In this document: piece after piece, positions 28,353-57,008 of the stretch
How the letters are laid out: every line of letters begins with the position of its first letter
Position numbering within the stretch: the first letter of the stretch is position 1
Source: a virus
Taxonomy: Duplodnaviria; Caudoviricetes
Reading direction: 5' to 3' (one strand)
IMG/VR virus record: IMGVR_UViG_3300027740_000003
Span: 192,001 to 256,000 of that record
DNA: 64,000 bases
Program-made: the position numbers and the translations under genes
The notes under the pieces: generated by a model
Seen by the model: only the letters and a program-made list of their open reading frames with translations
Told to the model about the DNA's origin: nothing
Databases searched by the model: none

Positions 28353-28906
28353 TTTCCAAGATTTCCGCCATGTTCTTCTAAATGATCTAGAATAACTTTA
28401 AGCCATAATTCTTTTGGACCAACTCCATTTAATACATCTATTAACAATATACTATATGCATTTCTCCTTTTCCATTCTTTCAATAACTCATCTGATATTG
28501 TTGATACCGTAGATAATAAATCTTTTGCACAATCATCCAATAATACAAATATCTTTTCTTTAGGAAAGTCATCGTCAATAATATTCCCATCTGGTTTAGA
28601 AACATCTTTGACAACCTCTTCATATTTATCTTCTTTGCCTTCATTAACAAATTTACAAAAATTCTTTTTACCCTCTTCTGATTTTAATGCAGTAGTAAAT
28701 AAAGCAATTTTACGATTGTTTGGGGCATAGTCTTTAACTGACTTTTGAAAATCTTGCAAAGTAATAGCTAGTCTAACCCCATCAGAAGCAAGAAACCCTA
28801 ATGTTGGAGGGTCTTCTTCTATATCATCTTTATAGATAACCGTACAAGGATACGCTTTAACGGCATCCACAAACTCTAACACATCAGAATATAGTTTGTC
28901 TTTCAT
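28349..28906 (-). CDS. Hypothetical protein (~185 aa, start MKDKLY)
   Basis: ATGA overlap at 28903-28906; SD AAAGGA. Confidence 0.65.
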   Translation of the reverse strand: MKDKLYSDVLEFVDAVKAYPCTVIYKDDIEEDPPTLGFLASDGVRLAITLQDFQKSVKDYAPNNRKIALFTTALKSEEGKKNFCKFVNEGKEDKYEEVVKDVSKPDGNIIDDDFPKEKIFVLLDDCAKDLLSTVSTISDELLKEWKRRNAYSILLIDVLNGVGPKELWLKVILDHLEEHGGNLGK

Positions 28907-29682
28907 TTGTCCTTTAAAAACCATTGGTTGTTTTGGTACCAATTGATTGTATGAATCAAACCCGATTTGAATTTAAATAGTGGGTCCCAGCCAAGTTCTT
29001 TTATATTCTTGTCGTTCAGATTCAGTTTTGGCCACCTATATACTGGTTCTTTGCTCTGTATAAGTTCATGTCCTCGACCAAAGACATTGCATATTTCTTG
29101 AAACATCTCCAGGTCTGTAATTTCATTATTCGTCGTTATGTCATAAACATCATTATCTTTTCCAGCCTTGAGAATTTTTATAAATGCCGCACACACATCC
29201 TGAACATGCAACCAGTCTCTAATTCGCATTCCTTCAATTGGGATTGGTTTATTATTTAACACACCATCTATGATTTGAGGAACAAGATTATGCTTCTGTT
29301 GTTTTGGTCCAAAATATTCTGGAACACGGATTAGCACAGAGTTTTCTGGAACAAACAATCCTTCATATTGTTGAACAATTAACAGTCGTGTCTTATGTTT
29401 TAAAGACACTTTGTGTATTTCTGGCAGGCCCGTTTTCAACAGATGAATAACAACATCTGGTTTTTCAATTTGGAAAACAACATCTAACAGATGTTCATCG
29501 GACACATTGCCAACATGGAAACTGTGTCCTTTGTTGGAATAAATGGTATTGGCAACATTCGGGTAGGTACAATAGTCTATGCTAGCAACCTTATAATCAG
29601 AATAATTTTTAAGAATATATCTGATTAAGTTGGATCCAAAGCACCCACCTGAACCGGTTATTAATAATTTAGTCTGTGCCAT
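28903..29682 (-). CDS. RmlB-like NAD-dependent epimerase/dehydratase homologue lacking the catalytic segment
   Basis: ITGSGGCFGSN, FGPKQ...LVPQII, RDWLHVQD, LGW.P, TINWY present; no TDE or YxxxK motif. Confidence 0.7.
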   Translation of the reverse strand: MAQTKLLITGSGGCFGSNLIRYILKNYSDYKVASIDYCTYPNVANTIYSNKGHSFHVGNVSDEHLLDVVFQIEKPDVVIHLLKTGLPEIHKVSLKHKTRLLIVQQYEGLFVPENSVLIRVPEYFGPKQQKHNLVPQIIDGVLNNKPIPIEGMRIRDWLHVQDVCAAFIKILKAGKDNDVYDITTNNEITDLEMFQEICNVFGRGHELIQSKEPVYRWPKLNLNDKNIKELGWDPLFKFKSGLIHTINWYQNNQWFLKDK

Positions 29683-31501
29683 ATGTTATATTGTCTTCTT
29701 CTGTCTTTGAAGGCTCGACAGAAGATGTTTTTTCATTTAAATGATCTTCCAAAGCTTTCAACATTACATTCCCGAGGTCTGTCTCTTGAAGATTTGACAA
29801 TGCGTTTTTTAACCGATCAATATTGTCAATATCTCTAATCTTTGCTTGATCTAGAGACGGAATAGGCACAAGTCTATTCATTTCTTTATTTGCTATAATT
29901 GCTTTTCCAATATATTTTTCTGGACAGACTTGCCAATTATCAGAGGCTGCATATATTTCATTTTCTGGAACCCTAGAATCAAAAATTAAATTGGCTCCCC
30001 AAATCGTCAAACGACCAGTATCTTGACATTTACTTATCTGAAATGGGCCTTTGATATTTGTGCTATCTTCTAATAATAATTTTTGTTTATTGTTTGGGTT
30101 CAATAAAAACCAAATAGAAACAGAATCATTACGGTCAACAAGCATTTTAGCTTCAACCATAGTTCTTAATAAACTTTCTTTATTACTGACTTCTACAATT
30201 TGTGTTATTTTTTCATTAAGAATTTGTGTTGCCACATCTTTTGTAGAATCAACATCAGAACATAATGTATTATTTAGTTTGTTTTCTAATTCTGTTGAAG
30301 ATTCATTTGTTAAATTTAAAACATTAATAGACTTTAATATATTAAATATTTTAACCAAATCATTATTGTCTAATTTGATTTCATATTTTTCTAAACCTTT
30401 TTTAAACAGCCTTTTAATTTCATCTTCTTGACAATATTTATGGAACCTGTCTCGTTTTTCTTCTTCGCTGAATATATTAGATTTTTTTACTACCACGACA
30501 TTACTAAGTTTGGACAAATTATCTTTATGTTCTTCTAAATCACAAAGCTCAGGTTTTGATTTTTTTGAAGAAGATAAGGGTTCGTGAAGACCTATGCCGT
30601 CTACAGCTATTCCTAATTCTTTATCTAATTCTTTTTTAAATTGACTATCATATTTTTTAGCTTCTTGACTGACAATTTCTTCAAAAGGTATCTGGTCAAG
30701 TTTTTCCATTGCAGAAACTAAAGCTTTTCGTGCAAATAAAAGTTTTCTATCTAATACAAATTGCTTAGTTGTAAGATCTCCAATAAGTTTTTCTAAACTC
30801 TCCACTGTAGATAATGGAGAAACGGGAGCTTGTAATTCCCAAAAATCTTTTATAATATTCCTCTTATCATCATCTGACACTCTTTCCTCTGGTCTAGAAT
30901 TCATTTGGTTTAGCTCCATATTTTTATGATAAACTTTAGTATTATTTCCGTCTTTTATTATGCCTCCAATAACCGGCTTATTTCTTTTTACATTAAGAAA
31001 CTGCGCTAGTTTATCTTCACCAATAAGATGAGCAATTTCATCAATGCCCTGTGGAGCTTCTGGAACCCTTTTTACTTTTTGACCTTTGAAGGCTTGTCTC
31101 CAAGCTCTTTCATTTTCAGTCTTATGTCTTGCGTTTAGTACATCTACAATGAGCTGTCTTTGTTTTAGATCGGTAAAACTATTAAAATCCTCAAATTGTT
31201 CTTTTAACCAAGATACAACATCTTCAACTTCATCTATTGGAACATCTTCTAGATTTTTTAACTTTGTTGTGTAATCACTTGATCCTTCAGAAACTTTAAC
31301 ATCTTTGCTGTGCTCCAAATAATATTTTACCAGAAGTTTTCTGGTTTTTTCTGATAAAATATCGTAGTTAGTAAATTGTTTCCTTAATGCACAGATTGCC
31401 TCGTCTATTTCATCTTTATAGGACTCATTTACAAATCTCTCTGGTTCCCTAAACTCATTACCGGCCGGTTGGTCAAAATTAAAAGACAGCTGTTCGTTCA
31501 T
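29669..31501 (-). CDS. Large hypothetical, partly coiled-coil protein (610 aa, start MNEQLSF)
   Basis: SD GAGGAG; two weak N-terminal repeats (IDE..LRKQF / IDE..LKEQF); VPEN motif near the C-terminus. Confidence 0.7.
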   Translation of the reverse strand: MNEQLSFNFDQPAGNEFREPERFVNESYKDEIDEAICALRKQFTNYDILSEKTRKLLVKYYLEHSKDVKVSEGSSDYTTKLKNLEDVPIDEVEDVVSWLKEQFEDFNSFTDLKQRQLIVDVLNARHKTENERAWRQAFKGQKVKRVPEAPQGIDEIAHLIGEDKLAQFLNVKRNKPVIGGIIKDGNNTKVYHKNMELNQMNSRPEERVSDDDKRNIIKDFWELQAPVSPLSTVESLEKLIGDLTTKQFVLDRKLLFARKALVSAMEKLDQIPFEEIVSQEAKKYDSQFKKELDKELGIAVDGIGLHEPLSSSKKSKPELCDLEEHKDNLSKLSNVVVVKKSNIFSEEEKRDRFHKYCQEDEIKRLFKKGLEKYEIKLDNNDLVKIFNILKSINVLNLTNESSTELENKLNNTLCSDVDSTKDVATQILNEKITQIVEVSNKESLLRTMVEAKMLVDRNDSVSIWFLLNPNNKQKLLLEDSTNIKGPFQISKCQDTGRLTIWGANLIFDSRVPENEIYAASDNWQVCPEKYIGKAIIANKEMNRLVPIPSLDQAKIRDIDNIDRLKNALSNLQETDLGNVMLKALEDHLNEKTSSVEPSKTEEDNITYGTD

Positions 31502-31533
31502 ATATATTCTCCTCTTTCTTATTGTAATATATC

Positions 31534-32349
31534 TCAAATGGCCAGAATTTGTTCTTTTATTTCTGGTATGCCTAACTTTTCACACAAATCTTTATTTGTT
31601 TCCAAACTTCTGTCGCATTTAGAAGCCTCATATGCAATTATATTTAAATTAAGATCAAACCTCTCATTAAAATATTGCATCATTTCATACTTATTTACAG
31701 CTGTAGGGGAAAATACATGATATAAACCTTGTTTCCACCAATCATTTTCTATAATCTTTTCGCATACTTTGGCAAACTGTGCAGTGGTTATTCCGTTCCA
31801 CAGATGTGTTGTAAACCCGCGAACCTCTTTTCCTTTTTGGGATTTGGCCCACTCTACCAAGCTGGCGTTTTTATGAATCTCCTCTCCGATAATAGAGGTC
31901 CTAATAACCAAAGCATTTGTTGGTTCTCCTAGGGATTTGCTTTTTCCATAATCATCTAAAGCATCATGAGTATCTGTTTCAATATATTTGCCTTTGTTCC
32001 CCGAATAAACACAATCAGTTGTTATATGAATCAGTTTTGATCCATTGTTTTCACACCAGTTAGCTAAATCCCACGGAAACACGGCATTTAGATATCTTGC
32101 AGCTCTTGGGTTGGTTGACATAAATGGTTTAATTGTTCCGATACAATTAATTACATAATCATAAATTCCAACTTCACCTCCAAGGCATAAAAAAGTGGGG
32201 CCTTTTGCCGCATCAAACCAAATACGATTTGTACCAAACGCCACAGACTCATCTCTGTGGGTTAATGTAATATTATGTTTTGTTTGCAAGAAATGCTTGG
32301 ATACAGCATTTCCTAACATTCCAGTGCTTCCTAAAATTAGTATTTTCAT
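31534..32349 (-). CDS. RmlD-like NDP-4-keto-sugar reductase (QnlA/WbvR-type)
   Basis: ILGSTGMLG, VINCIG, IHITTDCVYSG, YGKSK, IRTSIIG. Confidence 0.85.
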   Translation of the reverse strand: MKILILGSTGMLGNAVSKHFLQTKHNITLTHRDESVAFGTNRIWFDAAKGPTFLCLGGEVGIYDYVINCIGTIKPFMSTNPRAARYLNAVFPWDLANWCENNGSKLIHITTDCVYSGNKGKYIETDTHDALDDYGKSKSLGEPTNALVIRTSIIGEEIHKNASLVEWAKSQKGKEVRGFTTHLWNGITTAQFAKVCEKIIENDWWKQGLYHVFSPTAVNKYEMMQYFNERFDLNLNIIAYEASKCDRSLETNKDLCEKLGIPEIKEQILAI

Positions 32350-32801
32350 CGGTAGTCTTCCTTCCAAACGTTTAATGTTTCGTAATCAAATCTATAATCA
32401 TCTCCTTTGCTTTCCTCTAATGTTGAGGTAGAATAAAATGTAATTATCGTACCTTGTTCCAAAGATTTAAACCCATTGGCGTATCCACTTGGAATAAACA
32501 AAACCTTGGGACTAGTATCTGATAATACAAATTTATTTACTTCGTTAGATAAACGATAGCCACTAGGAAACACTTCATCTTCTATTAATTTTGCAATGAC
32601 AATCAAAGCAGATCCTTTGCCTACATAAACATATTTGCTCTCGCACAAATGTCCATGAAAAGCGCGGACATAATTAACCTGATGATCTTTCACATGATAA
32701 ACACGTCTGACACCACACATATAAGGATCAAAATCATTTATGAATCTAATTGTTCCTCTATCGTCAGTAAAAAGGTTGCCTTGAATTATTTTAGGGTCCA
32801 T
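32346..32801 (-). CDS. Cupin-fold NDP-sugar epimerase/isomerase (RmlC/FdtA-like)
   Basis: DDRG, RAFHGH...E, LFIPSGYANGFKSLE, DDYR. Confidence 0.85.
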   Translation of the reverse strand: MDPKIIQGNLFTDDRGTIRFINDFDPYMCGVRRVYHVKDHQVNYVRAFHGHLCESKYVYVGKGSALIVIAKLIEDEVFPSGYRLSNEVNKFVLSDTSPKVLFIPSGYANGFKSLEQGTIITFYSTSTLEESKGDDYRFDYETLNVWKEDYR

Positions 32802-32803
32802 TT

Positions 32804-33748
32804 TTAGAATTTTCCTTTGCCTAGCTTTGAAAGAAATGCAGCATTTGAATATACAGGATCATTCATATCCACTACTCTATTTTGCTCGAAGACTTCTTTC
32901 AATTCTAATATTCCGTCCTCAATAGTATAAAGTGGTTTCCAACCAGTGTTGAGAATTTTAGAATTATCAACCCTATAATTTCTTAAATCTTCAAAACTCA
33001 TATTTTTAAATTCAACCTCTGTCCCTGGAATAATAGATTGTATCTTGGTGGCAATTTCATGAATTCTCATGTTGCTTTCAGATAGATTATATAATCCAGT
33101 TATGTTGTTTTTAAATCCATAAAGAAAAGCGTTGGCAACATCTTTTACATGAAGCAAAGGACGCCACTGGTCCCCACCAAAAACAGATAGCTTTTCCCCG
33201 GCCACAGCTTTCTTTGTAAGAACATTTACCACCAGGTCAAGCCTGAGCCTAGAGTAAGTATCAGAAAGCCCGTAGAGGGTTCCTAAACGGAACACAAGTG
33301 AGTTCTTGTGATTGGCCAGGATATATTGCTCAGCTAGTAGTTTTGTTGAAGCATATGCAGAAAGAGGATTAGGAGCCGCTGTTTCATCTATAAGATCGTT
33401 GTTAACACCATAACAGCTACAAGTGCTAGGGAAATTTATACCGCCACTGTAATTATCCACCAACCATTTAACTGCCTCAAAATTAATTTCATTAGTTAAC
33501 TCAACATTAACTTGGCAAGCACCGTCCCCAACAATTCCCGCCAACCAAATAACAGAATCATATTCTTTTAATACTTTGGAAAGCTTATCTCTATCCCGAA
33601 CGTCCCCATAAATATATTTAACCTCTTTAAGAAACCTAGTTTCATAAAGCAAATTATCATAAATAGCAACATCATAACCATTTTTAATAAACAGATCGGT
33701 TAGATAGCCTCCAACATAACCGGCACCACCTACAATCAATACTTTCAT
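32804..33748 (-). CDS. NAD-dependent sugar epimerase/dehydratase (extended SDR)
   Basis: VGGAGYVG, LAGIVGDGAC, STCSCYG, YASTK, FRLGTLYG, RPLLHVKD. Confidence 0.9.
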   Translation of the reverse strand: MKVLIVGGAGYVGGYLTDLFIKNGYDVAIYDNLLYETRFLKEVKYIYGDVRDRDKLSKVLKEYDSVIWLAGIVGDGACQVNVELTNEINFEAVKWLVDNYSGGINFPSTCSCYGVNNDLIDETAAPNPLSAYASTKLLAEQYILANHKNSLVFRLGTLYGLSDTYSRLRLDLVVNVLTKKAVAGEKLSVFGGDQWRPLLHVKDVANAFLYGFKNNITGLYNLSESNMRIHEIATKIQSIIPGTEVEFKNMSFEDLRNYRVDNSKILNTGWKPLYTIEDGILELKEVFEQNRVVDMNDPVYSNAAFLSKLGKGKF

Positions 33749-34831: not shown

Positions 34832-35422
34832 TTATTTGCTAGCCTTACAAAATTCCAATTAAATTGATAATCAGAATTCCTCCATTTAATTGAAGGGATG
34901 TCATTTTTTATTATTTTTTTATTTGTACATAAAACAATTTTTTTCCATACGTTCTTTTGAATAAAAGAATTGTTCTCCGTTATTAAAATCATCAACCATA
35001 ACTTTTGTTAAAATACAATCATAATCTATTGTTGAAAATTGAAAAGAAGCAATTCCGATATCTGTTAAATTAATATCATTAAATAATCTTGTTATTTCAT
35101 CCACATGATTATGCTGAAGTACCAAATTGCATAAAACCAAATCTACCGGTTCAATTTCTTTTAATTGATATGACATATATGTTTTAGAAGCCCCTTGTTC
35201 TTTAGCTTCTTCTAATAGAATTTTTGACACATCAACAGCATACACAGTATTGCTTTTACATAGATTTTTTACCTCATCGCTTCTACCCACCCCTAAAACA
35301 ATTATTTTTTTATCAGTTGGAAAGTCTAGCTGATGAAAAGATAATGTTTCTAATAATGATTGAGAGCTTATATATCTATTATTTTTGCCAGCATACTCAT
35401 TCCATTTTTCGTAAATATCCAT
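34828..35422 (-). pseudogene. Class I SAM methyltransferase; in-frame stop at 34919, but a +1 shift in an A7 run extends it to a 197-aa protein ending in an ATGA overlap with the 2-epimerase
   Basis: IIVLGVG, YAVDVS, DLVLCNLVLQH motifs; hand translation of the alternative frame across 34828-34944. Confidence 0.6.
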
Positions 35423-35431
35423 TATATCTCC

Positions 35432-36614: not shown

Positions 36615-37435
36615 TGTATACCTATATATCTCTTCCAAAGATTTATTGAAGACTTTCTGTCCCAGTTTAGTTTAAATATATCGTCTCGTGTATTCAATGA
36701 TGGAACAAAATCTTTTTTAATTCCATCTAATATAACCATCGGCAAATTACAAGCCATAGCTTCCCATTCAACCATAAAAAATGGTCTAAGTAGTCCACAA
36801 GATAAAAAGAAATCTGAACAAGCTAATAATTCAGATAGTTGCAACTGAGATACATGAGTAAAATTAGAAGCTCCATCTAAATGTCCAGCCTCTTCTTGTT
36901 GTTTCCAAACCACAATCCAATATATATCAGGATTATCATTTTTATATTGTAATAATTTATTATATCCTTTCATTGGGTGCGTTGTTCCACACCAAATCCC
37001 AATTTTTTTATCAACTGGCAAATTGTATTTTGTTTTTATTTCTAATTTATTATCAATTGGTTTGAACAAATCAGTATCTACGCCTATTGGCAAAACATCA
37101 ATTGTACCAAAGTCTTTATAAAATTCTATCATTATGCTACTAGCTACAGTTCTTTTAATTGATTTTCTAGCACTATCTGCAATGATATTTATAATAGGAT
37201 CTATGGCAGGATCTCCTAAAGCGCGTTTCATTTCAGGATGAAGTTCCCATAATAACGATATTGTATTGTTTGGGAATTTATTTGCTCCCAAAGTAGAATA
37301 TTGCAAAATAATATCATTTGATTTAATACTAGCAGGCAATCCAAAAGATGAAACGTCTCCCATTTCCCTTTTCATCCATGTCCAAAAAGTATCTTCTCCT
37401 AATCCCGAAATCACTTGAGCATTTAAATATAACAT
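36611..37435 (-). CDS. GT4-like (GT-B) glycosyltransferase
   Basis: VLPIGVDTDLFKP, HPMKG, LLACSDFF...EWEAMACNLPMV. Confidence 0.8.
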   Translation of the reverse strand: MLYLNAQVISGLGEDTFWTWMKREMGDVSSFGLPASIKSNDIILQYSTLGANKFPNNTISLLWELHPEMKRALGDPAIDPIINIIADSARKSIKRTVASSIMIEFYKDFGTIDVLPIGVDTDLFKPIDNKLEIKTKYNLPVDKKIGIWCGTTHPMKGYNKLLQYKNDNPDIYWIVVWKQQEEAGHLDGASNFTHVSQLQLSELLACSDFFLSCGLLRPFFMVEWEAMACNLPMVILDGIKKDFVPSLNTRDDIFKLNWDRKSSINLWKRYIGIQ

Positions 37436-38187
37436 TATATTAATTCTCCCCAATTTTTATCAACATTTCTTTTTATAATGCTTTTTCTAGACATAAATAA
37501 TTTTTCATTATATTTATATCTTTCAGCATTATTACCTTCTAAAGTTAATCTTGGATGATACAAATGAACAACTTTGCAATTTACTTTAAAGTGTTTATTA
37601 CCAACGCTACACATTCTCTCTACAATATCATTATCATCATATCCTGTTCCAATAAAATCCTCATCATATCCACCTATATCTACAAAATCTTTCCTATTCA
37701 TTCCCATAAAAAAAGGCAAATGCATATTATATAATGTTTGCAAGGAATTATAATCAGTAGATATTAGCTCTCTACCAGTACGTAATATTCGTAAAAACCT
37801 TCCTATTTCATCATCTTTAATATCAGGTATAGTTAATAGTTTTTTATTAACATTTAATATGTTCAACATGTCCTGTACAGTATTATCCAAATGATACATT
37901 TCAGCACATGAAATAAATATAAAATCACTATCTGTTCTCTTTACCCCATAATTTACAGCGTATCCTGGAATTCTCCATTGTGTAGAATTTTTACCAGTAT
38001 GAAAATATTTTATATTTAATTTATTTTCATAAGACATACATATATTTTCAGTATCATCATTTCCCCCATCATTTAAAACCACTACCTCTATTTCAGATTG
38101 TGAAAAAGATTGTTTGGCCAATGAGGCCAATCCATAATTTAATAGTTCGGATCTGTTAAAAGATGTAATTAATATTGTTGCTTTCAT
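37435..38187 (-). CDS. GT2-family glycosyltransferase with a GT7-like C-terminal motif
   Basis: ILITSFNR, VVVLNDGG, NYGVK, GGYDEDFIGTGYDDND, HLYH. Confidence 0.85.
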   Translation of the reverse strand: MKATILITSFNRSELLNYGLASLAKQSFSQSEIEVVVLNDGGNDDTENICMSYENKLNIKYFHTGKNSTQWRIPGYAVNYGVKRTDSDFIFISCAEMYHLDNTVQDMLNILNVNKKLLTIPDIKDDEIGRFLRILRTGRELISTDYNSLQTLYNMHLPFFMGMNRKDFVDIGGYDEDFIGTGYDDNDIVERMCSVGNKHFKVNCKVVHLYHPRLTLEGNNAERYKYNEKLFMSRKSIIKRNVDKNWGELI

Positions 38188-38792
38188 TAGTATTGTTTCC
38201 CCAGAACCGCATCATAATAATAAATAACCTTATCAATCCGCACTTGATGTTTTATTTTTGGCCAAGCTTGTTTTACCCAAGCAAAATCCTCACCAGTATT
38301 GGTTTGTGGAAAAATACAAGTTTTTGCAATTCTTGATGCCCAAACCATATTGTGAGACGGTTTTCCATACCACAATTCTGGAATTTCATTTTTAACACTG
38401 CAATTTTCTATTGTCCATGGTGCCAATTTGGTATAATCATATTCTATGCCAAATTTGGAATGTATTTTTCTACAGCCACTAATTACACAAATCATATCAT
38501 AAACAATACAATCAGCATTAGGATTGCAATCTATAGCATTTAATATCTCAAATAGAAAGTCCTCGGAAATCCTATCATCATCATCTACAAATACAATAAA
38601 ACTTCCGGAGGCCATATTTAATAATATATTTCTTTTTTCACCTATTGTTTTTTTATAATTGTCTAACAAACCCAAAACCTCAACATCGTTCCTGTTATTT
38701 TTTATAATTTGATTATTTATATTTTCTATCATATTAGTAAAAAACCGCTCGCATCTTTTTGTTGTAGTTGGAACTAATATACTAAGTTTCAT
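38187..38792 (-). CDS. GT2-family glycosyltransferase
   Basis: LSILVPT, IGEKRN, FIVFVDDDD, GEDFAW. Confidence 0.85.
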   Translation of the reverse strand: MKLSILVPTTTKRCERFFTNMIENINNQIIKNNRNDVEVLGLLDNYKKTIGEKRNILLNMASGSFIVFVDDDDRISEDFLFEILNAIDCNPNADCIVYDMICVISGCRKIHSKFGIEYDYTKLAPWTIENCSVKNEIPELWYGKPSHNMVWASRIAKTCIFPQTNTGEDFAWVKQAWPKIKHQVRIDKVIYYYDAVLGKQY

Positions 38793-41566
38793 TTTGCACC
38801 AATATATTTTACTACCTTTCCAATAAAGGTAGTTTTATCTCCGTTTAATGTTGTTATTGTATTTTCTAAATTTGCTGTTTTTGGATGCCCTCCATACCAA
38901 TGAAATCCAATAGCATTATAATAATCCTCTACATTTAAATTATAATTAAGAAAGAAATCAATATTCTGTATCGAATATACGGTCTGTACATTTATATGTA
39001 ATGCATTTTCATTTCTTGTAAACAATTTATTTCCCATACTTTGATAATCTTTTGCTTTAAATTTTTTTATTGCTAAGTTTGATATTTTTTTATAAAAATC
39101 ATTATTTTGACTAGACATCAAAAATCCTATGGCATAAATTCCATCATCATAACAACAAACGCCAGTATGTGTTTTATTATTTAAATCATTATTATCAATC
39201 ATATAATTTATAGGTTGAACATAAAGAATATCCATATCTGACCAAACGCCACCTTCCCCTGATAATAAAATCCATCTCAAAAAATCAGACTTATGTACTT
39301 CATGGGCAGTATTGGAAAATCCATATTTATCAAAATTATGTTTAACAAATTCTACATTTAAATCATGTATTAAATCAAAACAATTACTAACATTATTTTG
39401 AATTGATTTAGATATTTTTTGTTCAAGCGTTTTCCAAGTAGGAACAATTGTTCCTAAAACTTCAGGAATATGTAATTTTATTTTCCAATCCGGATTTTGT
39501 TTTCTAAAAGAATATATACTTAAATATCTTAAAAAAGATAATTTTTCTCCTCCCCAGTAAAAATGGGCTACTTTAGGTATATTTTCAAACTTCCATTCAT
39601 TAGACCTATTTATAATAGCAACATTTCCCCAGCCTTTATTATTTCTAACTATAATATTCTCTCTTTCTTTATATAGTTTTCTATTATAATCTACTCTTTG
39701 TTGAACATATTGATTTTCTATTTTAAGAGTTTTTCCATTTATTAATAATCTTTCATGATATAAATGTATTATTCTGTCATTCGTGTAATGATATTTACAG
39801 CCATATTTTTTTAATCTTTCAGACAAATCGTTATCATCTGCAACAAGTCCAATAAAATCTTCATCATATCCACCAATATCAATAAAATATTGTCTATTTA
39901 AACCTAGAAAATATGGCAGCTGCATTGTTGCTGGATCATTCTCCATTATTTTTTCTTTATTAAAATCATTTTCAATATTTATAGATCCATCTTTCAATTT
40001 ATTTAGAAAGTTTCCAGAACCTTCTTTTCCAACACATGTGGTTATAATTTTCTCATTATTATTTTCTAAAACATTTAACATCGAAGATATAGTATTATCT
40101 AAATGATATATTTCTGCACATGAAATAAATATAAATTTTCCTTTAGCTATTTTGACACCAATGTTTATAGCATATCCGGGAATTCTCGAAACAATACTAT
40201 TTAAATTTCTCTGACCAGTAAAAATATATTTTATATCCAAATCAGTAAATTCTGAACATATTCTCTCAGTATCATCAGGAAGATAATCATTGATAACTAT
40301 TATTTCTACATCGTTTTTATTAAAATCCTGTTTTGCAATTGAAGACAATCCAAACTTTAACAATTCCGATCTGTTGTAGGTACTAATTAAAATTGATGCT
40401 TTTTTACATTCCGTATTGTTATTTACAAACAATGGCACAACAACTTTCCAAGGCAAATTAATATCGAAATTTTGTGTGGTTATAGGTTGTAATGTGTTTT
40501 CATGTATATTATAATTAGAACTACTTGTTTTTACTATTTTTATATTATTTATTACCAAACTTCCAGTAGACATCTTTGCCGGCCGATAAACATTTAATAT
40601 ATACGTCTCCCCATATCCTTTATTTCCAGAATATATATCAACATTTATATTATTATTTCCTACTATGTTTTGATATACTACGCCTACATTATTTAATAAT
40701 TGTACTCCTAACCTTCCATTTCCATTAATAACTCTAGATGAAAGAGAAATATTATATGTTGTGTTTGGTTCTAATAATGCCAACGGGATAGAAAACTTTC
40801 CCATACTAGACATCACTATTCCCCCGGATACTTTATTACACTTTTCTAACGAAGAAGCTAAAGTATCAACGGAAGCATCAATGATTATATTACTCATAGT
40901 TCTCTCTTCATTAACTAACTCACAGACCGTATGTTTTTGTATTGCTTGTTCTTCTTTAACAGCTTGTATCTTTGATGCAACAACAATATCATTTGGAACA
41001 TGATTCTCTATAACAGCGCTGGTGTTCATCGTAATATCAAAAATTCTACATTGATAAATAAATACTATCTTTCCATTCTTCCTAATCCACCCATTAGGAG
41101 GATCTGTCTGCAAATCTAAAATGTCAGCTTCATTATCTATCTCTGCTGCCTCTGAAGCAAATACACCAAAATCTGTTTTGTTTATCCCCGAAGACTTTCC
41201 AATTTTACGCAAAAATAAATCCATATCGTTAGATATAAACGTGGGAATCTCAACAGGCTCACTCACAATAATATCTTCAACAAATAATTTAGAAACAAGA
41301 ATATGTCCCGTTGCTCCACGAGGCCTAGAAATAACTACATCACTGGCCGTCTTTATTAGTGTTGGTTTTGTAGGATTTAATACATGAGTCGCCCCGTTTA
41401 CAATAATGTTTACATCAGATCCTCGGACTCGAAAAAATTCAACAAATCCTTCACGGGGCAATAAAAACCTTACAGAGCTTCTTTCTCCATTTAATCGTAA
41501 ACTGGCACCAACTTTACAACAATATTGCTGAGAAATTATCACACTGTGTAGGTCTAACTGCTTCAC
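38789..41566 (-). CDS. Multidomain glycosyltransferase: beta-rich N-terminus + GT2 + GT32-like (DxD) domain (925 aa)
   Basis: GT2 ILISTYNR...GGYDEDF; GT32-like IPKVAHFYW...KSDFLRW...GGVWSDMDIL. Confidence 0.85.
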   Translation of the reverse strand: MKQLDLHSVIISQQYCCKVGASLRLNGERSSVRFLLPREGFVEFFRVRGSDVNIIVNGATHVLNPTKPTLIKTASDVVISRPRGATGHILVSKLFVEDIIVSEPVEIPTFISNDMDLFLRKIGKSSGINKTDFGVFASEAAEIDNEADILDLQTDPPNGWIRKNGKIVFIYQCRIFDITMNTSAVIENHVPNDIVVASKIQAVKEEQAIQKHTVCELVNEERTMSNIIIDASVDTLASSLEKCNKVSGGIVMSSMGKFSIPLALLEPNTTYNISLSSRVINGNGRLGVQLLNNVGVVYQNIVGNNNINVDIYSGNKGYGETYILNVYRPAKMSTGSLVINNIKIVKTSSSNYNIHENTLQPITTQNFDINLPWKVVVPLFVNNNTECKKASILISTYNRSELLKFGLSSIAKQDFNKNDVEIIVINDYLPDDTERICSEFTDLDIKYIFTGQRNLNSIVSRIPGYAINIGVKIAKGKFIFISCAEIYHLDNTISSMLNVLENNNEKIITTCVGKEGSGNFLNKLKDGSINIENDFNKEKIMENDPATMQLPYFLGLNRQYFIDIGGYDEDFIGLVADDNDLSERLKKYGCKYHYTNDRIIHLYHERLLINGKTLKIENQYVQQRVDYNRKLYKERENIIVRNNKGWGNVAIINRSNEWKFENIPKVAHFYWGGEKLSFLRYLSIYSFRKQNPDWKIKLHIPEVLGTIVPTWKTLEQKISKSIQNNVSNCFDLIHDLNVEFVKHNFDKYGFSNTAHEVHKSDFLRWILLSGEGGVWSDMDILYVQPINYMIDNNDLNNKTHTGVCCYDDGIYAIGFLMSSQNNDFYKKISNLAIKKFKAKDYQSMGNKLFTRNENALHINVQTVYSIQNIDFFLNYNLNVEDYYNAIGFHWYGGHPKTANLENTITTLNGDKTTFIGKVVKYIGAK

Positions 41567-42315
41567 TAGTCTTCCTTATATGATACATATATTGGCAACT
41601 TGCCCTGTGAATATAATGCACAATTATTCCGGAACTCACTAACTTTACTATCATGCTCAAATGTTTTAAATTTCCTATACTCCCCCGTGTCATATTCTCC
41701 TACTCCCAGATGAATTCCCGGCTCTTTCAGATATCCTAGTTTAAATCCAAAAAACCTAGCTCTCATACCATAGTCGCTATCTTCTAAACCATAAAATCCA
41801 GTGTTTTTACCAGGAACATTATATTGTTTAAAAAATCCAAGAGCTTTATGCAACGGTTTCCCAAACACCATACAAGCAGTACCCAAATTCCCCTGAGGCT
41901 TATTCTGAAACTCATGCCCTCCCAGCTTAACCAAAGGATATGTTGTTGCCTCAAAATTGACTCCTACGGCACCGTAAACAGGATTGGCCTTGAGTATCCC
42001 AAGGCACTCTCCAAGCCATCCTGAAGGCACCTCGACATCATTATCAATGGTACAATACCAATCCGCCCCCATCTGGTCAGCTGCCCATAATGCTTGGTTC
42101 CTTCCTTTGCAAATACCTAGATTATCTGAATTTAATATCAACCTACCCTTCCCAACCAAATAATCATTTAGGAATTCCACAGTCCCATCTGTAGAACAAT
42201 TATCAACAACAACTAGCTCATAATCCAAATCTGTATTTTTTTCTAATGAAGCTAATGTTAATTTTGTAAGCTCCAGCCTGTTATAAGTTATCATCATTAG
42301 AACTATTTTTTCCAT
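41566..42315 (-). CDS. GT2-family glycosyltransferase
   Basis: MITYNR, VVVDNCSTDGT, GRNQAL, TIDNDV, YGLEDSDY. Confidence 0.9.
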   Translation of the reverse strand: MEKIVLMMITYNRLELTKLTLASLEKNTDLDYELVVVDNCSTDGTVEFLNDYLVGKGRLILNSDNLGICKGRNQALWAADQMGADWYCTIDNDVEVPSGWLGECLGILKANPVYGAVGVNFEATTYPLVKLGGHEFQNKPQGNLGTACMVFGKPLHKALGFFKQYNVPGKNTGFYGLEDSDYGMRARFFGFKLGYLKEPGIHLGVGEYDTGEYRKFKTFEHDSKVSEFRNNCALYSQGKLPIYVSYKED

Positions 42316-43274
42316 TTTAATACCTCAAACATCTCCAACGGAGTCAAGTTTTTACTGGTTATTATTTTCTTGTTTGGATTTATAAATTTCTTATTTCTTA
42401 TCAAACAGCATTCATTATAAAGTTTTAATGCACATGGCGTTGTGTTCCCAATAAACAACCCCGCCAAAACAAAATCTGGTTCCTTTGATAAAACAAAACT
42501 CGACTCTTTAATCAGATAAACAATATTCTCTACGTCCAACGAAATAGTTAATGCCCCCGTTCCATAATACTTTTGTGGATTAGGTGAGGCTATTATTAAA
42601 TTATAATTTGTTTTAGTTAACATTGCGGCAAATGATCTAACTTCGTTTATCCCCCATGTAAGACTTAAACTGTTATGATCAGACCATCCCGTTATATCAG
42701 GGAATAATAATACAAACCTTTTTTTCAAATCAAACCTAGATGTATTTGCTATCTTTAGTAATTTCTCAGGCAACTCTATCCTTCTTAATTGTGGAATATA
42801 TTTTTCATTCCATGTTATCATTAAATTATTAAATAATTGTTTTAATAATGGCTTGTCATTTCTATATTTAAATTCCCCCCAATAAGTATAAACATCAATA
42901 TAATTATTTAAACAATTCATAATTGCTGCCGTTTTGTTCTTATTAAAAAATACAGGAACAGTATATTGGTGAAGAACAGATGCTGAAATACGTTTGGTTG
43001 GTTTGGCCAAACCCTGAATATCATTAAGTTTTTTAAATAATGAGTTGCCACACCATTCCATTGGATAACGTGAATATATTGTATTCAACGCTTCAAAATA
43101 AGATAATGAAAATAAATTTTCAATAAACCCTCCGTTAAGACAAAGCACGCCGGTTTTATCACGAAATAAATGGTTCCACCTATCAGAGTTCATTTCTGGA
43201 ATAATGAATTTATGATTCCCTAACGTATAAGGAACTCCTTCAGCAAAAGGAAATATCTTAGTGCTTTGGTACAT
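42303..43274 (-). CDS. Divergent GT-B protein, GT9 (heptosyltransferase)-like layout
   Basis: GGFIENLFSLSYFEALNTIY...W, VLLFP...TWG, LIKESSFVLS follow GT9 spacing; weak match. Confidence 0.4.
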   Translation of the reverse strand: MYQSTKIFPFAEGVPYTLGNHKFIIPEMNSDRWNHLFRDKTGVLCLNGGFIENLFSLSYFEALNTIYSRYPMEWCGNSLFKKLNDIQGLAKPTKRISASVLHQYTVPVFFNKNKTAAIMNCLNNYIDVYTYWGEFKYRNDKPLLKQLFNNLMITWNEKYIPQLRRIELPEKLLKIANTSRFDLKKRFVLLFPDITGWSDHNSLSLTWGINEVRSFAAMLTKTNYNLIIASPNPQKYYGTGALTISLDVENIVYLIKESSFVLSKEPDFVLAGLFIGNTTPCALKLYNECCLIRNKKFINPNKKIITSKNLTPLEMFEVLKWKK

Positions 43275-44097
43275 ACAACATGTAGTTTGGATTGTTTTGA
43301 TATATTTCTAAATCCATCTGGAATGTTTTTCCCCACTTATCTTTAAATAGTTTTACATTGCTCTGAACAAATAACTTATTTACAGGGTTTAACTTTAATG
43401 AAGAACTTTCGTTATGATAAAATAACGTATCTCCGCAATAAACAATTTTCTTTCCCATATTATATTTAATTGACAAATTCATATCAATGTCATCAAATGA
43501 CCATATAAATGATTCACACATTCCGGATATTCCAGATTTGTTTGCTGTACATACTTGTTTAAAATATTTAGATTTAGTTAAACAAACGGCAGCAGTACAA
43601 GCCTGAAATTCTCTATTAACATTATCTTGTTTATTTACTTTGTCTCCGCGGCGATAATGAAAAGGCATAAAATTATACTTAGCAGATCCTATTACCCCAA
43701 CATGAGTTATCGTATCTCCATCCGGATATAATATCTTTCCTCCAACTAATCCTACCCAAGAATCCTTTTCCATAATATTTATCATATTCTTTAATGATTT
43801 GTCGTCTATAACCCACAGATCATTATTAAGCAATAAAATATAATCATCATCGGCCGGTCTTGCTAAATCAAAAAGAATATTCATTCCTTCTGCAAAATTA
43901 TGTCTGTTATGTCCAGTATAATATGGAACAATATTGTTTGATTTAATAGATTCTAGAAACTCTTTCGAACCATCATTGCTACCATTGTCTTTTATATACC
44001 AACAATAATCTAATCCTTTTAATGCTGGAAGCAAAGATACATATAATCTTTCCAACAAAGGTTTGGCATTCCAGTGAAGAGTAAATATCTTAATCAT
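43258..44097 (-). CDS. GT2-family glycosyltransferase
   Basis: IKDNGSNDGS, NFAEGMN, LLLNND, FDDIDMNL, YHNESSS. Confidence 0.9.
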   Translation of the reverse strand: MIKIFTLHWNAKPLLERLYVSLLPALKGLDYCWYIKDNGSNDGSKEFLESIKSNNIVPYYTGHNRHNFAEGMNILFDLARPADDDYILLLNNDLWVIDDKSLKNMINIMEKDSWVGLVGGKILYPDGDTITHVGVIGSAKYNFMPFHYRRGDKVNKQDNVNREFQACTAAVCLTKSKYFKQVCTANKSGISGMCESFIWSFDDIDMNLSIKYNMGKKIVYCGDTLFYHNESSSLKLNPVNKLFVQSNVKLFKDKWGKTFQMDLEIYQNNPNYMLYVPKH

Positions 44098-44834
44098 CTC
44101 TTGGTCCACTTTGTTATAAATGTTCTTTTAGATTCTAAATACATATTAGACAAACCTAGCTTTTTAGATGTCATCTTCCCAAAATGAACAACCGGAACAG
44201 GAATAATTTTAAATGGTATTCTTAGTTCTGTAGCACGAAATGACAAATCAACGTCTTCATAATACGAAAAAAATTCCTGTGAAAACGGACCTTTAACAGT
44301 ATTCTCTGTAGGTATAAGTTTATCAAATACTTCTTTTCTAGCGCAAAGGCACCAACCAGACATATAGAAATTGCCGGACTCCATTGTGGTTGTTTCCCTA
44401 ATGAAGTTAAAATGTTCATCCAACAATCCTCCATTAGGCCCAACAATGCTTCCATCAGCAGCTGCATCAATAAGTTTCTGAGTCCATGTAGAATGGTCTT
44501 TCTGTACCCTTATATCGTTATTTAAAAAGAGAACGTATTCTCCTCGGGCTATCTGGTACCCTCGGTTAGAAGCTTCCCCAAACCCCCTATTATCTTTATT
44601 AATAATAGCTATGAGGTTCCTAGGACGATCTAATCCCGTCGGATGATCCGGATGAACACAATCTACCATAATAAATGGATTGGCCCAAAGATGGCAGCTG
44701 TCTTTGGTTCTATCTGTGCTTCCGTTATCTATCAAAATAACCTCATGATCCTCTGGCAACTTGGCAAGATCTTTCAGAGCAGATTTGGTAAAGTTCCAAT
44801 TATTGTGAACGGGTATTATTATACTTAGTTTCAT
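44094..44834 (-). CDS. GT2-family glycosyltransferase
   Basis: LSIIIPVHN, LIDNGSTD, GFGEASNRG, LFLNND, YYEDVDLS. Confidence 0.92.
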   Translation of the reverse strand: MKLSIIIPVHNNWNFTKSALKDLAKLPEDHEVILIDNGSTDRTKDSCHLWANPFIMVDCVHPDHPTGLDRPRNLIAIINKDNRGFGEASNRGYQIARGEYVLFLNNDIRVQKDHSTWTQKLIDAAADGSIVGPNGGLLDEHFNFIRETTTMESGNFYMSGWCLCARKEVFDKLIPTENTVKGPFSQEFFSYYEDVDLSFRATELRIPFKIIPVPVVHFGKMTSKKLGLSNMYLESKRTFITKWTKR

Positions 44835-46035
44835 TTATTTTTCTCATTTCTTTATTATTTTTTCTAGTTTCAATCATTTTTTTATAAGCACAAATAGGAC
44901 AAAAATGTCCTTTTTTTATTGAAGACGGAACTGCGAACCACCTATGCCCAATTTCACATTCCCATTCTAATTTTTGACGACATCCCAAATAAACAGAAGA
45001 AATACATTTTCCACCTTTTTCTTCAGCTGACTTTTTATATTCTTCGAATTTGTTATAATAAATATTGTGCATATACGCCTGCGACAAATCTATTTCTTTA
45101 TTTTCAACATTATACCCAAATTCTCTACATTTATTTATAATAAAATCTTTTAATCTAGGAAAACTTAATTTATTAAATAAGGTTGGAATGACTACAAGAT
45201 TGATTCCTTCTAATTTACACTGTTCTAGTTTTAATTTATCATTTCTTTGAACCTCTTCTAATCTATTATTTGATTTGCCAAATGAATTATTTTCATAATG
45301 ATGAGCTCCCTGATGTTCAAAAGCTAAATTTAATTCTTCACAATATCCGTCCAATTCAAGTTTAAAACCTTTGTCAGAACGCAAACAACCCAACCTAATA
45401 GTTTTAAATTCTTTATTAAAAAGTTGTTCAAAATGAGTCCTGCATACTTCTTCACTTAAATTATTATTTCTAGAACATTTTTGACACCAATGTCCTAAAC
45501 TTACAACATCAAAATATTTAATATAAAAAATATGTCCAAAATTACACATCATTTTTATTTTTGACAAACTTGTGTCATATTTTTTAGACAAACATTTTCC
45601 ACCATATTTTTCGACAATTTTTACCAAAACATCATAGTGTTTTTTATTATAACACTCTCGGCATTTGATCAAATCTCTACTTTGTGAATTAAAACTTTTA
45701 TTAAATTCACATCCACATTTTAAACATTTCCAATTTAATTTCTTTTTATTATAAATGTATTCTTTTGATACACAAATTACACCTGTGTCTTTTAATTGTT
45801 CATTTATATTTTCTATAGATCTTTTTTTATTAGTACAATAATTTTTTGAACAATATTGACATTTTATCAAAGATTTATTTTGACAATCTAAAGTTCTTTC
45901 AAATTCATTATTACATTTGAAACATTTCCATTTAAGCACTTGTCTATTATATTCATAATGATCTGATATACATATTACATCAAAATTTTTAAATTTTTCA
46001 TTTATGTTTTTAATTGTTAATTTATTTTTATACAT
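44800..46035 (-). CDS. Zn-finger-repeat PD-(D/E)xK (Vsr/DUF559-like) endonuclease, probable free-standing homing endonuclease
   Basis: Four CxSxxY..KLxWxCxx(C/H)...CxxC modules around ELDGY...LAFEHQG.HH; Lys/Asn-rich and very AT-rich. Confidence 0.75.
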   Translation of the reverse strand: MYKNKLTIKNINEKFKNFDVICISDHYEYNRQVLKWKCFKCNNEFERTLDCQNKSLIKCQYCSKNYCTNKKRSIENINEQLKDTGVICVSKEYIYNKKKLNWKCLKCGCEFNKSFNSQSRDLIKCRECYNKKHYDVLVKIVEKYGGKCLSKKYDTSLSKIKMMCNFGHIFYIKYFDVVSLGHWCQKCSRNNNLSEEVCRTHFEQLFNKEFKTIRLGCLRSDKGFKLELDGYCEELNLAFEHQGAHHYENNSFGKSNNRLEEVQRNDKLKLEQCKLEGINLVVIPTLFNKLSFPRLKDFIINKCREFGYNVENKEIDLSQAYMHNIYYNKFEEYKKSAEEKGGKCISSVYLGCRQKLEWECEIGHRWFAVPSSIKKGHFCPICAYKKMIETRKNNKEMRKINETKYNNTRSQ

Positions 46036-47233
46036 TTGTTAAACTTGTAATCTGTTGTGCCACATTATCCCAACTCATTATTTTTAACTGTTCTTTAATC
46101 ACTGGTCGGAACCTGTTCATTATGTCATCATAATTGCTAACTGCATATCTGAGTTTAGCAACTGCATCATCTATGTCCGGCTCAAACATCTCTGCAAATG
46201 GAGAATTTGTCCAGTATTGCATTTCTTTTGGAGCACGAATCATTTTGCCATCAATTAAAATAGAGTTGTTATTATTTAGGAAGTCTAGCTGCCCCCCATA
46301 GTTGGAATTAATTACCAAAATATTTGTGGCTAACGCTTGGGCCGAAGGCAGATGGAACCCTTCAGCATGAGTCATCGCAAATAAAATATTACAAGCATTA
46401 TATAGCGGAGTCATTGTGTCTAAGAATTCTGGAATAATTTCAACTTCAGCATGTTTTGGATACTTTTTATAAAAATCTTCTACAATTCTCCAAAAATCAA
46501 TATTAAATGGCATTGCTTTTTCTTTGGTCTGCTCTGGAGAATTCCTTTGATTCAGCTTCTTTGCAGCCCTAAGATTTCTAACCTGTTTCTGAACAATTGC
46601 TTTTGGTGAAGGTTTAACACTTATTTTGCACACCAAACAAACATCATCTTCTTTTGTGAACGCTTTTCCAAACGCTTCAAATAATCCTGGTATATTCTTT
46701 CTTATATGTGGTTGAGCTATATCTGATAATATTTTATATTTCTTTTTAGTCTTTAATTGATAAACCTTTTTGGAAGAATACTCTTCTACATTTATTCCAT
46801 GAGGCACAACTATAAGTTTTTCTTCTGGAATACCACTATTAGCAAATATTCTTTTTGAAAACTCTGAAGAAGGAAGCATCTTATCACAAAATTTATGAAG
46901 TTTAGCAAACCCTTCAGGAATAATCGTGGTTTCATAATTCCATATTCCAAATCTATTTTTATTTCCATTATTAAGATAACGTGGAAAGTTTGTCATTGCC
47001 GTATAAGATAATTGCATATCATAATTTTTATCTATATATTTCCACGGAGTCGAATCCTCTTGCTCTTTCCATTCTCGCAAATATGGTTTTAAATCTTCTG
47101 GAAAATATTTAATTCCATTTGTTGAAAACAAATGAACGTCATGATTTTGTTTTATTAATGCCCTGGCAATATTCGTGCCAACGATTTGCCAGCTGTGATT
47201 TTGAGCTAGGAACTGTTGAATTTTAATTTTCAT
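46028..47233 (-). CDS. GT4-family glycosyltransferase
   Basis: WNYETT, VVPHGIN, RKNIPGL, THAEGFHLPSAQALA, NYGGQLDF. Confidence 0.9.
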   Translation of the reverse strand: MKIKIQQFLAQNHSWQIVGTNIARALIKQNHDVHLFSTNGIKYFPEDLKPYLREWKEQEDSTPWKYIDKNYDMQLSYTAMTNFPRYLNNGNKNRFGIWNYETTIIPEGFAKLHKFCDKMLPSSEFSKRIFANSGIPEEKLIVVPHGINVEEYSSKKVYQLKTKKKYKILSDIAQPHIRKNIPGLFEAFGKAFTKEDDVCLVCKISVKPSPKAIVQKQVRNLRAAKKLNQRNSPEQTKEKAMPFNIDFWRIVEDFYKKYPKHAEVEIIPEFLDTMTPLYNACNILFAMTHAEGFHLPSAQALATNILVINSNYGGQLDFLNNNNSILIDGKMIRAPKEMQYWTNSPFAEMFEPDIDDAVAKLRYAVSNYDDIMNRFRPVIKEQLKIMSWDNVAQQITSLTNV

Positions 47234-47245: not shown

Positions 47246-47275
47246 ATAAAAGAAAGGCTAGGACAAGCCTAGCCT
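47246..47275 (-). terminator. Rho-independent terminator-like hairpin after the baseplate operon
   Basis: Minus strand AGGCTAGG-CTTGT-CCTAGCCT (8-bp stem) followed by TTCTTTTATT. Confidence 0.75.
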
Positions 47276-47299
47276 CGAATATTTCTTTCTTTTCTTTAA

Positions 47300-57007: not shown

Positions 57008-57008
57008 A

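Follow-up and report, generated by a model that had tools for sequence, protein, structure and literature searches.

Hypervariable islands of glycosyltransferase (GT) and sugar-nucleotide genes beside the fibre genes of large phages are already known (PMC7029224, PMC7824862). The hypervariable island (HRC) of pelagimyophages and cyanomyophages is a poorly syntenic region in or beside the fibre-baseplate module of big myoviruses that is rich in GTs and deoxy-sugar genes, varies among close relatives and has an acceptor that was not shown (Zaragoza-Solas et al, 2020, PMC7029224), and the "capsular polysaccharide modification systems" of jumbo (cyano)phages are polymorphic clusters of paralogous GTs, nucleoside diphosphate (NDP)-sugar enzymes and O-methyltransferases (Iyer, Anantharaman, Krishnan, Burroughs, and Aravind, 2021, PMC7824862). 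In these respects they resemble the locus described here, which lies in a window of 64,000 nucleotides (bases 192001-256000) of the 435,004-bp IMG/VR record IMGVR_UViG_3300027740_000003, a phage record rated complete that comes from an uncultured phage of a soil metagenome. Large phages of oceans, lakes and now soil repeatedly carry such fast-evolving sugar-synthesis islands beside their tail genes, and, to our knowledge, nobody has shown the acceptor of these islands. In 18 kb at window positions 28903-47233, on the minus strand, 19 open reading frames (ORFs) with overlapping or abutting ends comprise 10 GT genes (11 GT domains), five nucleotide-sugar enzyme homologues, two small methyltransferase-like genes, one HNH endonuclease gene and one orphan. 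What is new is the large clade of phages that share the locus, the genome-wide absence of membrane and DNA-acceptor parts, a core-plus-cassette architecture, a decayed dehydratase and the co-distribution of the tripeptide Asp-Gly-Tyr (DGY). Our leading interpretation, which is tentative and which we place a little below an even chance, is a cytoplasmic, membrane-independent assembly of a glycan on an acceptor made by the phage, most probably the outer baseplate and fibre proteins of the virion.

The locus was annotated with Pfam, NCBIfam, PHROGs, Atlas and a fold search (AlphaFold2 and Foldseek). An earlier note on this DNA, made from its letters, had counted ten GT genes with 11 domains (seven GT2, two GT4, one GT32-like, and one GT9-like), five nucleotide-sugar enzyme homologues and two methyltransferases. 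The GTs were matched by Pfam, PHROGs, Atlas and fold evidence; WecB, a short-chain dehydrogenase/reductase (SDR) and RmlC-like, RmlD-like and RmlB-like proteins were all recovered, the last of them catalytically dead; and the methyltransferases correspond to ORFs of 167 and 145 aa.

To compare the locus with that of other phages, relatives were recovered by means of the 1003-aa protein encoded immediately upstream and an alignment of GT9-like orthologues, as IMG/VR contigs of 40 to 459 kb (labelled G and L below); single-protein scans with the 925-aa and GT9-like proteins returned zero close relatives. The shared gene order is a dockerin-bearing baseplate protein, GT4, GT2, GT2 (then, where present, GT9-like, GT2 and a fusion protein with a carbohydrate-binding module [CBM]-like part), a variable cassette, RmlB-like, tubulin and helicase. 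In G001, G002, L012, L014, L017, and L032, a giant Laminin_G_3 protein and a dockerin protein of ~1000 aa are followed by GT4, GT2, GT2, GT9-like and GT2 and then by a protein that starts with the CBM-like module, with the qualification that the Laminin_G_3 gene is not in view in L032 and that L017 differs downstream of the GT9-like gene. GT4 is preceded by a homologue of the 1003-aa protein, with at most one small ORF between them, in G001, G002, G003, L012, L014, L017, L030/L031, and L032. The sole exception is L018, which keeps the GT core with an endonuclease insert and in which neither the 1003-aa nor the 2230-aa protein has a homologue within the 5.4 kb ahead of GT4; elsewhere, the baseplate neighbourhood to which the earlier note had drawn attention, with gp6-like and gp25-like genes upstream, is conserved in the relatives whose flank is seen. 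Identity to the window is 30-58% for the core GTs and 36-57% for the flanking structural proteins, a similar divergence, which is more in line with genes inherited vertically together with the virion module than with a host-derived accessory gene of sporadic occurrence.

The distal part of the island is exchanged among the relatives. The cassette of the window carries ManNAc and L-sugar genes, whereas relatives carry fucose, amino-sugar and sulfotransferase genes instead: that of G001 consists of GT2, GT11, GT1-like, methyltransferase, hexapeptide acetyltransferase, PhyH dioxygenase, WbqC, DegT aminotransferase, GDP-mannose dehydratase and Fcl-like SDR genes, and that of G002 of GT10, GT2, GT11, GT1-like, DegT and sulfotransferase genes plus a LAGLIDADG endonuclease gene, and the cassette is also replaced in L032. 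The G002 sulfotransferase gene (Sulfotransfer_4, L009:16211-16948) suggests that the glycan of this lineage may be sulfated. A minimal form of ~4-7 kb, with GT4, GT2, GT2, and a dehydratase, is present in G003 and in the widespread L030/L031 type; a 333-aa protein in the minimal locus of L030 was considered as a GT9-like candidate and rejected as a different protein. Given these minimal forms, the shared core and the replaced cassettes, the window locus represents the expanded state of a small module, which is fixed in a large clade of uncultured (mega)phages and is conserved in its proximal part and hypervariable in its distal part. A database search with GT4 gave 980 homologues at E <1e-5; of these, at least 120 align over the full length with an identity of at least 48%, on contigs of up to 460 kb. 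The small GT core (GT4, GT2, and GT2, with or without the GT9-like and a further GT2) marks hundreds of metagenomic contigs. A tblastn search with GT4 found only Streptomyces phages (~22% identity) and a Microcystis phage, and the Streptomyces-phage homologues, located among nucleotide-metabolism genes, were uninformative; for the GT9-like, GT2, and 925-aa proteins, no actinophage homologue was found.

We determined the absence of families from the whole genome by six-frame hidden Markov model (HMM) searches, the positive controls of which matched in 10 to 14 of 14 genomes (10 for PF02397 and 13 for PF00953), and transmembrane (TM) segments by a 19-residue hydropathy scan with a threshold of 1.6. 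No TM segment was found in the locus proteins, for which the hydropathy maximum was 1.52, and none of the 678 ORFs of the genome had more than five predicted TM segments in the same scan, in which no Wzx/Wzy family HMMs were run. Thus, the description of the locus as export-free and soluble extends to all 435 kb. The genome also gave no match to the priming phosphoglycosyltransferases PF02397 (Bac_transf) and PF00953 (WecA/MraY), to a sugar nucleotidyltransferase (NTP_transferase) or to the heptose precursor enzyme GmhA/SIS_2, and all seven GT2 matches, both weak GT1 matches and every Epimerase-family match in it fall within the locus. It therefore holds neither the priming transferase nor the polytopic protein of a Wzx/Wzy-dependent or ABC-transporter-dependent polysaccharide locus, and GtrABC seroconversion features are likewise missing, as the seven GT2 are without TM segments and no polytopic protein was found (no GtrA HMM was run).

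The same searches bear on DNA as an acceptor, on which the GTs might build an oligosaccharide at a modified base as a protection against restriction or CRISPR. Phage GT clusters from envelope-glycan families, related to lipopolysaccharide (LPS) and teichoic acid enzymes, glycosylate 5-hydroxymethylcytosine and sometimes occur near structural genes (bioRxiv 10.1101/2023.12.21.572611), as the present GTs do, and poly-arabinosylated 5-hydroxycytosine exists in phage DNA (PMC13326640). However, such systems rely on a thymidylate-synthase homologue, needed for 5-hydroxymethylcytosine, 5-hydroxymethyluracil, and 5-hydroxycytosine, or on a C5-methyltransferase with a TET-like dioxygenase (bioRxiv 10.1101/2023.12.21.572611; PMC13326640), and the complete genome is without PF00303 (thymidylate-synthase-like), PF12851 (TET/JBP) and PF00145 (C5-methyltransferase), so that the lack of a DNA hydroxymethylase noted earlier in the window applies genome-wide and DNA glucosylation is disfavoured. 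The glycans in these two sources are mono- to trisaccharides (plus a "poly"-arabinosylated cytidine of unstated length), as against 11 GT domains and methyltransferases here. Bacillus phage G, the nearest cultured relative (its wedge protein is 31% identical over the first 30%) and one whose DNA is said to be derivatised, has no homologue of the three locus GTs tested and no GT annotated in the region after its wedge gene. One unexplained hint in the other direction is a gene for an Fpg/Nei-type DNA glycosylase (Fapy_DNA_glyco and H2TH) within the minimal module of L030 and L031 (L030:13198-14052 and L031:13198-14052), where it stands beside a LAGLIDADG endonuclease gene. Taken together, these observations make hypermodification of DNA a very unlikely function of the locus.

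Given the co-inheritance of the core GTs, the fixed module, the absence of membrane and DNA-acceptor steps and the swapping of cassettes, we ranked glycosylation of virion proteins first. The inheritance of the core GTs with the virion module, in phages that probably infect different hosts, favours a phage-borne acceptor, and the swapping of the outer cassette fits a glycan under outside selection. In the proposed pathway, activated sugars (UDP-GlcNAc and either NDP-hexose or NDP-heptose) would be supplied by the host because the phage has no nucleotidyltransferase. WecB would convert UDP-GlcNAc to UDP-ManNAc, and the SDR, cupin and RmlD-like trio would yield an L-configured sugar by oxidation at C4, epimerisation at C3/C5 and re-reduction at C4. 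The proximal GT4, GT2, GT2, GT9-like and GT2 enzymes would then assemble a core oligosaccharide on the acceptor, to be extended by the CBM-like/GT2/GT32-like fusion with the distal GT2 and GT1-like enzymes and capped by the two methyltransferases. As the distal part is swapped among related phages, particles of different lineages would bear different outer glycans on a common core. Precedents are the glycans on mycobacteriophage capsid and tail-tube subunits (Freeman et al, 2023, as cited in PMC12619734) and the autonomous glycosylation by chloroviruses and mimiviruses (PMC4691112). A more specific proposal is that the locus is a dedicated virion-glycosylation system of a large megaphage clade, in which a conserved core is placed on baseplate and fibre proteins, possibly through the tyrosine of DGY, and a swappable distal cassette provides a lineage-specific outer glycan; we consider this possible, although on balance doubtful. 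If the acceptor is in the virion, particle glycosylation would be a common and diversifying trait of giant phages, with a bearing on adsorption, persistence in soil and recognition by hosts or immune systems, and a virion core with its cassette would be a phage counterpart of core plus O-antigen, a "serotype" worn by the particle.

Several points weigh against a virion acceptor. Lipid-linked envelope glycans are usually made by enzymes of the GT2, GT4, GT9, WecB and Rml types, and the GTs of such pathways are peripheral and without TM segments; the export-free appearance of the locus is therefore still compatible with the use of a host carrier lipid and host exporters. The GT9-like protein, which has an Atlas feature score of 0.96 to GT9 clusters and no Pfam match at E <0.01, resembles LPS heptosyltransferases in its predicted fold: an AlphaFold2 model from seven orthologues (predicted local distance difference test [pLDDT] 81, predicted template modelling [pTM] score 0.84) has a GT-B fold, and the top Foldseek matches are WaaF, WaaC and the Veillonella GT9 3tov, with template modelling scores of 0.49-0.54 for 1psw, 6dfe, 2gt1, 2h1h, and 3tov. 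The island lies where the structural module meets the replication module, a usual site of plastic regions, and is preceded by a terminator-like hairpin. The virion proteins have no Ser/Thr-rich or Ser/Thr/Pro-rich acceptor tracts of note, no protein-directed initiating GT was identified, a k-mer search of 196 upstream gaps revealed neither a common motif nor a signal of early or late timing, and part of the DGY signal consists of dockerin calcium loops and beta-turns. Furthermore, the fibre-adjacent GT islands of cyanomyophages and pelagimyophages have been interpreted as serving host O-chain modification (PMC7029224; PMC7824862, section 3.4.10).

These points leave remodelling of the host envelope as the main rival, although a doubtful one. 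Soluble GTs at the inner membrane face would extend host-primed undecaprenyl-linked, lipid A-core or teichoic acid intermediates. The products would be brought to the surface by flippases or ABC transporters and by ligases of the host, and the altered surface would block superinfection or prevent progeny from adhering to debris. The enzymes belong to the families found in O-antigen, enterobacterial common antigen, capsule and teichoic acid loci, peripheral GTs require no TM segment, and the variable cassettes, with their GT10 and GT11 fucosyltransferases, perosamine-type genes and sulfotransferase, resemble serotype loci. On the other hand, the phage encodes no membrane step, and the module is a fixed hallmark of the clade and not a sporadic accessory gene. 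The five-GT core diverges as the virion proteins do across phages that are 40-58% identical and probably infect different hosts, which is hard to square with host-specific acceptors; if the acceptor is in the host envelope, the conserved core requires another explanation.

DGY, which the earlier note had put forward as a possible acceptor motif, is the most over-represented tripeptide in the genome (105 observed versus 21.6 expected), and most of the excess is in large proteins of the fibre and baseplate, for example, 19 versus 0.4 expected in a fibre of 1208 aa. Its sequence contexts differ; in most cases, a hydrophobic beta-strand follows. In the 1003-aa protein, two DGY and possibly a third lie within the calcium-binding loops of the Dockerin_1 domain, and four orthologues at ~50% identity retain seven of the eight sites. 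This dockerin type I domain was called at E 9e-10, above the cut-off, and again in the L032 orthologue; an attachment of the cohesin-dockerin kind would be unusual for a phage baseplate. The module-bearing phages checked show a 5- to 27-fold over-representation of DGY, for example, 9-fold in G002 and 7-fold in G003, with 10 versus 0.7 expected in L030 and 9 versus 0.3 in L032, whereas nine non-structural neighbours in L030 have none and the tail/baseplate block of phage G, a distant outgroup in which the three GTs tested have no homologue, has 2 versus 2.1 expected. We also considered whether loss of DGY goes with loss of the GT9-like gene, as the L007 orthologue of the 1003-aa protein lacks most DGY, and rejected this because the whole L007 contig is still 7-fold enriched. 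Thus, the co-occurrence of the locus with DGY-rich structural proteins that the earlier note had proposed to check was found in every clade member checked and not in the phage G block, but it is a correlation confounded by descent, since all carriers belong to one clade and the outgroup is distant. A structural role explains at least part of the enrichment, and DGY as a glycosylation sequon is speculative.

With respect to the sugar enzymes, the 259-aa RmlB homologue is, judged by alignment, a catalytic remnant. It covers positions 1-84 and 176-319 of the dehydratase profile, with about 85-175 missing, and is without the S-x-D-E and Y-S-A-[ST]-K segments, both of which are kept in the L007 and L010 orthologues; the orthologues in relatives have 316-322 aa, are intact and always stand ahead of the tubulin gene. 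The decayed ancestral dehydratase may possibly have been superseded by the SDR, cupin and reductase trio. In the 314-aa SDR, S-T-C-S replaces the T-D-E of dehydratases, and the closest solved structure is 6vo6 (E 2e-47), probably the GDP-heptose C4-dehydrogenase Cj1427 of Campylobacter jejuni; for the cupin and the reductase, the matches do not go beyond generic RmlC and RmlD. The product of the trio would be an L-configured sugar in which the C6 hydroxyl is retained, as opposed to a 6-deoxy sugar. For residues 1-350 of the 925-aa fusion, the model shows three beta-sandwich domains, the best matches of which are tandem CBMs (CBM22 and CBM51), and with a template modelling score of ~0.3 and a pLDDT of 66, the CBM-like assignment is a lead only. 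The GT2 domain of this fusion and the 250-aa GT2 probably arose by local duplication, as indicated by 68% nucleotide identity over ~330 bp between genome positions 229876-230197 and 232089-232421 (window 37435-38187 versus the 39876-40197 region). The 622-aa orphan has no match in Pfam, NCBIfam, PHROG or the PDB and no homologue in the relatives; its Atlas scores (0.79, capsid-like) are no better than chance, and a 503-aa protein at the same position in G001 has no real similarity to it.

The HNH endonuclease gene within the core is a selfish insert. It is absent from the matching position in most relatives, has a paralogue at genome positions 282120-283349 and has copies elsewhere in L018 (8071-9174 and 18236-19531). 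Homing endonucleases interrupt the GT island at differing points, with HNH plus DUF4379 here and LAGLIDADG in relatives (L009:10492-11571 and L030:12469-13104). In G001, a gene for a 2H-phosphoesterase or Acb1-like protein (L008:407-967; Acb1 would be of the kind acting against CBASS, a cyclic oligonucleotide-based antiphage signalling system) is inserted between the fibre gene and GT4.

The earlier note had described one coupled operon directly downstream of the baseplate genes. The tight array is borne out, as only three intergenic gaps of at least 35 bp occur between 21.5 and 64 kb of the window (a gap of 87 bp precedes the WecB gene), but the claim of a single operon goes too far, because a terminator-like hairpin lies upstream and the array runs on into replication genes. 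The hairpin follows the stop codon of the 1003-aa gene and precedes the GT4 ATG by ~20 nt, which sets the island apart from the baseplate genes without space for a promoter of its own downstream of the hairpin. A scan for sigma-70-like promoters was at chance level (118 versus 113), and no RNA run contained the sequence. Expression would probably occur by attenuated read-through of this terminator. Across the genome, the standard genetic code gives a coding density of 93%, and 589 of the 678 ORFs are on the minus strand. An 849-aa ORF for the large subunit of ribonucleotide reductase (window 17911-20460, minus strand) separates the fibre genes (6790-15388) from the replication genes, so that metabolic modules alternate with structural ones on a single strand.

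Past position 28903, the co-directional array continues through three small ORFs into the genes of a PhuZ/TubZ-like tubulin and a helicase, and in G001, G003, and L030/L031, the 3' ends of which are in view, the intact RmlB-like gene stands directly before tubulin and helicase. The tubulin orthologues are at L010:4708-6087 and L030:16876-18234, and L030 has a GH25 lysozyme gene between tubulin and helicase. This unbroken run, with the RmlB-like gene always abutting the tubulin gene, would suit another kind of acceptor, namely, a non-virion protein of the phage or host, such as the neighbouring replication/tubulin apparatus, or a free or small-molecule-linked oligosaccharide, to which the GT-fused CBM-like domains could bind as a soluble glycan. 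We regard such an acceptor as unlikely because cassette turnover better matches an exposed glycan under outside selection than an intracellular one, for which we know of no phage precedent. The positions of the features are compiled in Table 1.

Table 1. Genes and other features of the candidate glycosylation locus and its flanks, with positions in the window.
Feature	Position	Strand	Basis or remark
gp25-like baseplate protein, 143 aa	60306..60737	-	
gp6-like baseplate wedge, 1090 aa	57009..60281	-	
Laminin_G_3 protein (2230 aa) with gp6-like wedge and gp25-like genes (flank)	50315..60737	-	Domain matches
Virion protein, 1003 aa, Dockerin_1 domain at 596-664, 8 DGY (flank)	47300..50311	-	Pfam; relatives
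Intrinsic-terminator-like hairpin, 9-bp GC-rich stem (5 GC), then TCTTTTATT	47254..47276	-	
GT4-family GT-B glycosyltransferase, 401 aa	46028..47233	-	Pfam Glyco_transf_4; phrog_2170; first gene of conserved core, clade hallmark
HNH homing endonuclease, 411 aa, C-terminal DUF4379 zinc finger	44800..46035	-	phrog_559, E 8e-32
GT2 glycosyltransferase, 246 aa, conserved core	44094..44834	-	Pfam; relatives
GT2 glycosyltransferase, 283 aa, conserved core	43258..44109	-	Pfam; relatives
GT9-like GT-B glycosyltransferase, 323 aa, core of expanded forms	42303..43274	-	Atlas; AlphaFold2 fold
GT2 glycosyltransferase, 249 aa, conserved core	41566..42315	-	Pfam; relatives
Fusion protein, 925 aa: CBM-like 1-350, GT2 391-604, GT32-like DXD (Gly_transf_sug) 704-841	38789..41566	-	Pfam; model of N-terminal part
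Short GT2-like protein, 201 aa, DDDD motif at 70-73	38187..38792	-	Pfam
GT2 glycosyltransferase, 250 aa	37435..38187	-	Pfam; paralogue of the GT2 domain of the 925-aa protein
Weak GT1/GT4-like protein, 280 aa	36611..37453	-	Pfam E 0.002, below cut-off; phrog_2170 E 9e-7
GT2-like protein, 258 aa	35862..36638	-	Pfam
Small methyltransferase-like protein, 145 aa	35432..35869	-	phrog_6636, E 1e-5
S-adenosylmethionine-dependent methyltransferase, 167 aa	34919..35422	-	Methyltransf_11
Non-hydrolysing UDP-GlcNAc 2-epimerase WecB, 360 aa	33749..34831	-	PF02350 E 8e-88; TIGR00236 251 bits, above cut-off
SDR NDP-sugar oxidoreductase, 314 aa	32804..33748	-	YASTK kept; T-D-E dehydratase motif absent
RmlC-like cupin, putative NDP-4-keto-sugar 3,5-epimerase, 151 aa	32346..32801	-	Family profiles
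RmlD-like NDP-4-keto-sugar reductase, 277 aa, YGKSK	31534..32367	-	Family profiles
Acidic orphan protein, 622 aa	29669..31537	-	Without family or homologue in relatives
Degenerate RmlB-like dTDP-glucose 4,6-dehydratase homologue, 259 aa	28903..29682	-	Profile and alignment
PhuZ/TubZ-like tubulin (flank)	26299..27666	-	Conserved 3' border of the island in relatives
Helicase after tubulin (flank)	24811..26295	-	

The locus differs from the closest systems described to date. The HRC belongs to a T4-like lineage and lies between VrlC and gp14, whereas the present phage is a soil megaphage in which tubulin and helicase form the 3' border of the island; GT8 is dominant in the HRC, whereas a core of five GTs (GT4, GT2, GT2, GT9-like, and GT2) is conserved here and only the distal cassette varies. 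The clusters of jumbo phages, which were read as host-surface modification systems, often occur with sugar kinases and nucleotidyltransferases, which were not found here, and a fixed position and a conserved core are not described for them (Iyer et al, 2021, PMC7824862). The sugar trio resembles the capsule heptose enzymes Cj1427/Cj1430/Cj1428 of C. jejuni (PMC10680097) in gene order and in its predicted chemistry, that is, an SDR C4-dehydrogenase, a cupin 3,5-epimerase and a C4-reductase, but the phage has no GmhA, and its cupin and reductase are not matched beyond the generic RmlC and RmlD level. The mycobacteriophage systems, insofar as they are described in PMC12619734 (Freeman et al, 2023, Cell Host Microbe), are similar in that soluble phage GTs make a glycan on virion proteins without a membrane step; they differ in having few GTs and in that glycosylation was shown there by experiment, and no mycobacteriophage relatives of the GT4, GT9-like, GT2, and 925-aa proteins were found. 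The glycosylation of chloroviruses and Mimiviridae (Piacente et al, 2015, PMC4691112) belongs to eukaryotic viruses of another realm, but it likewise combines viral nucleotide-sugar pathways (L-rhamnose and a 2-epimerase homologue) with soluble GTs that act on capsid or fibril proteins, and it provides glycans that are independent of host membranes and variable between lineages.

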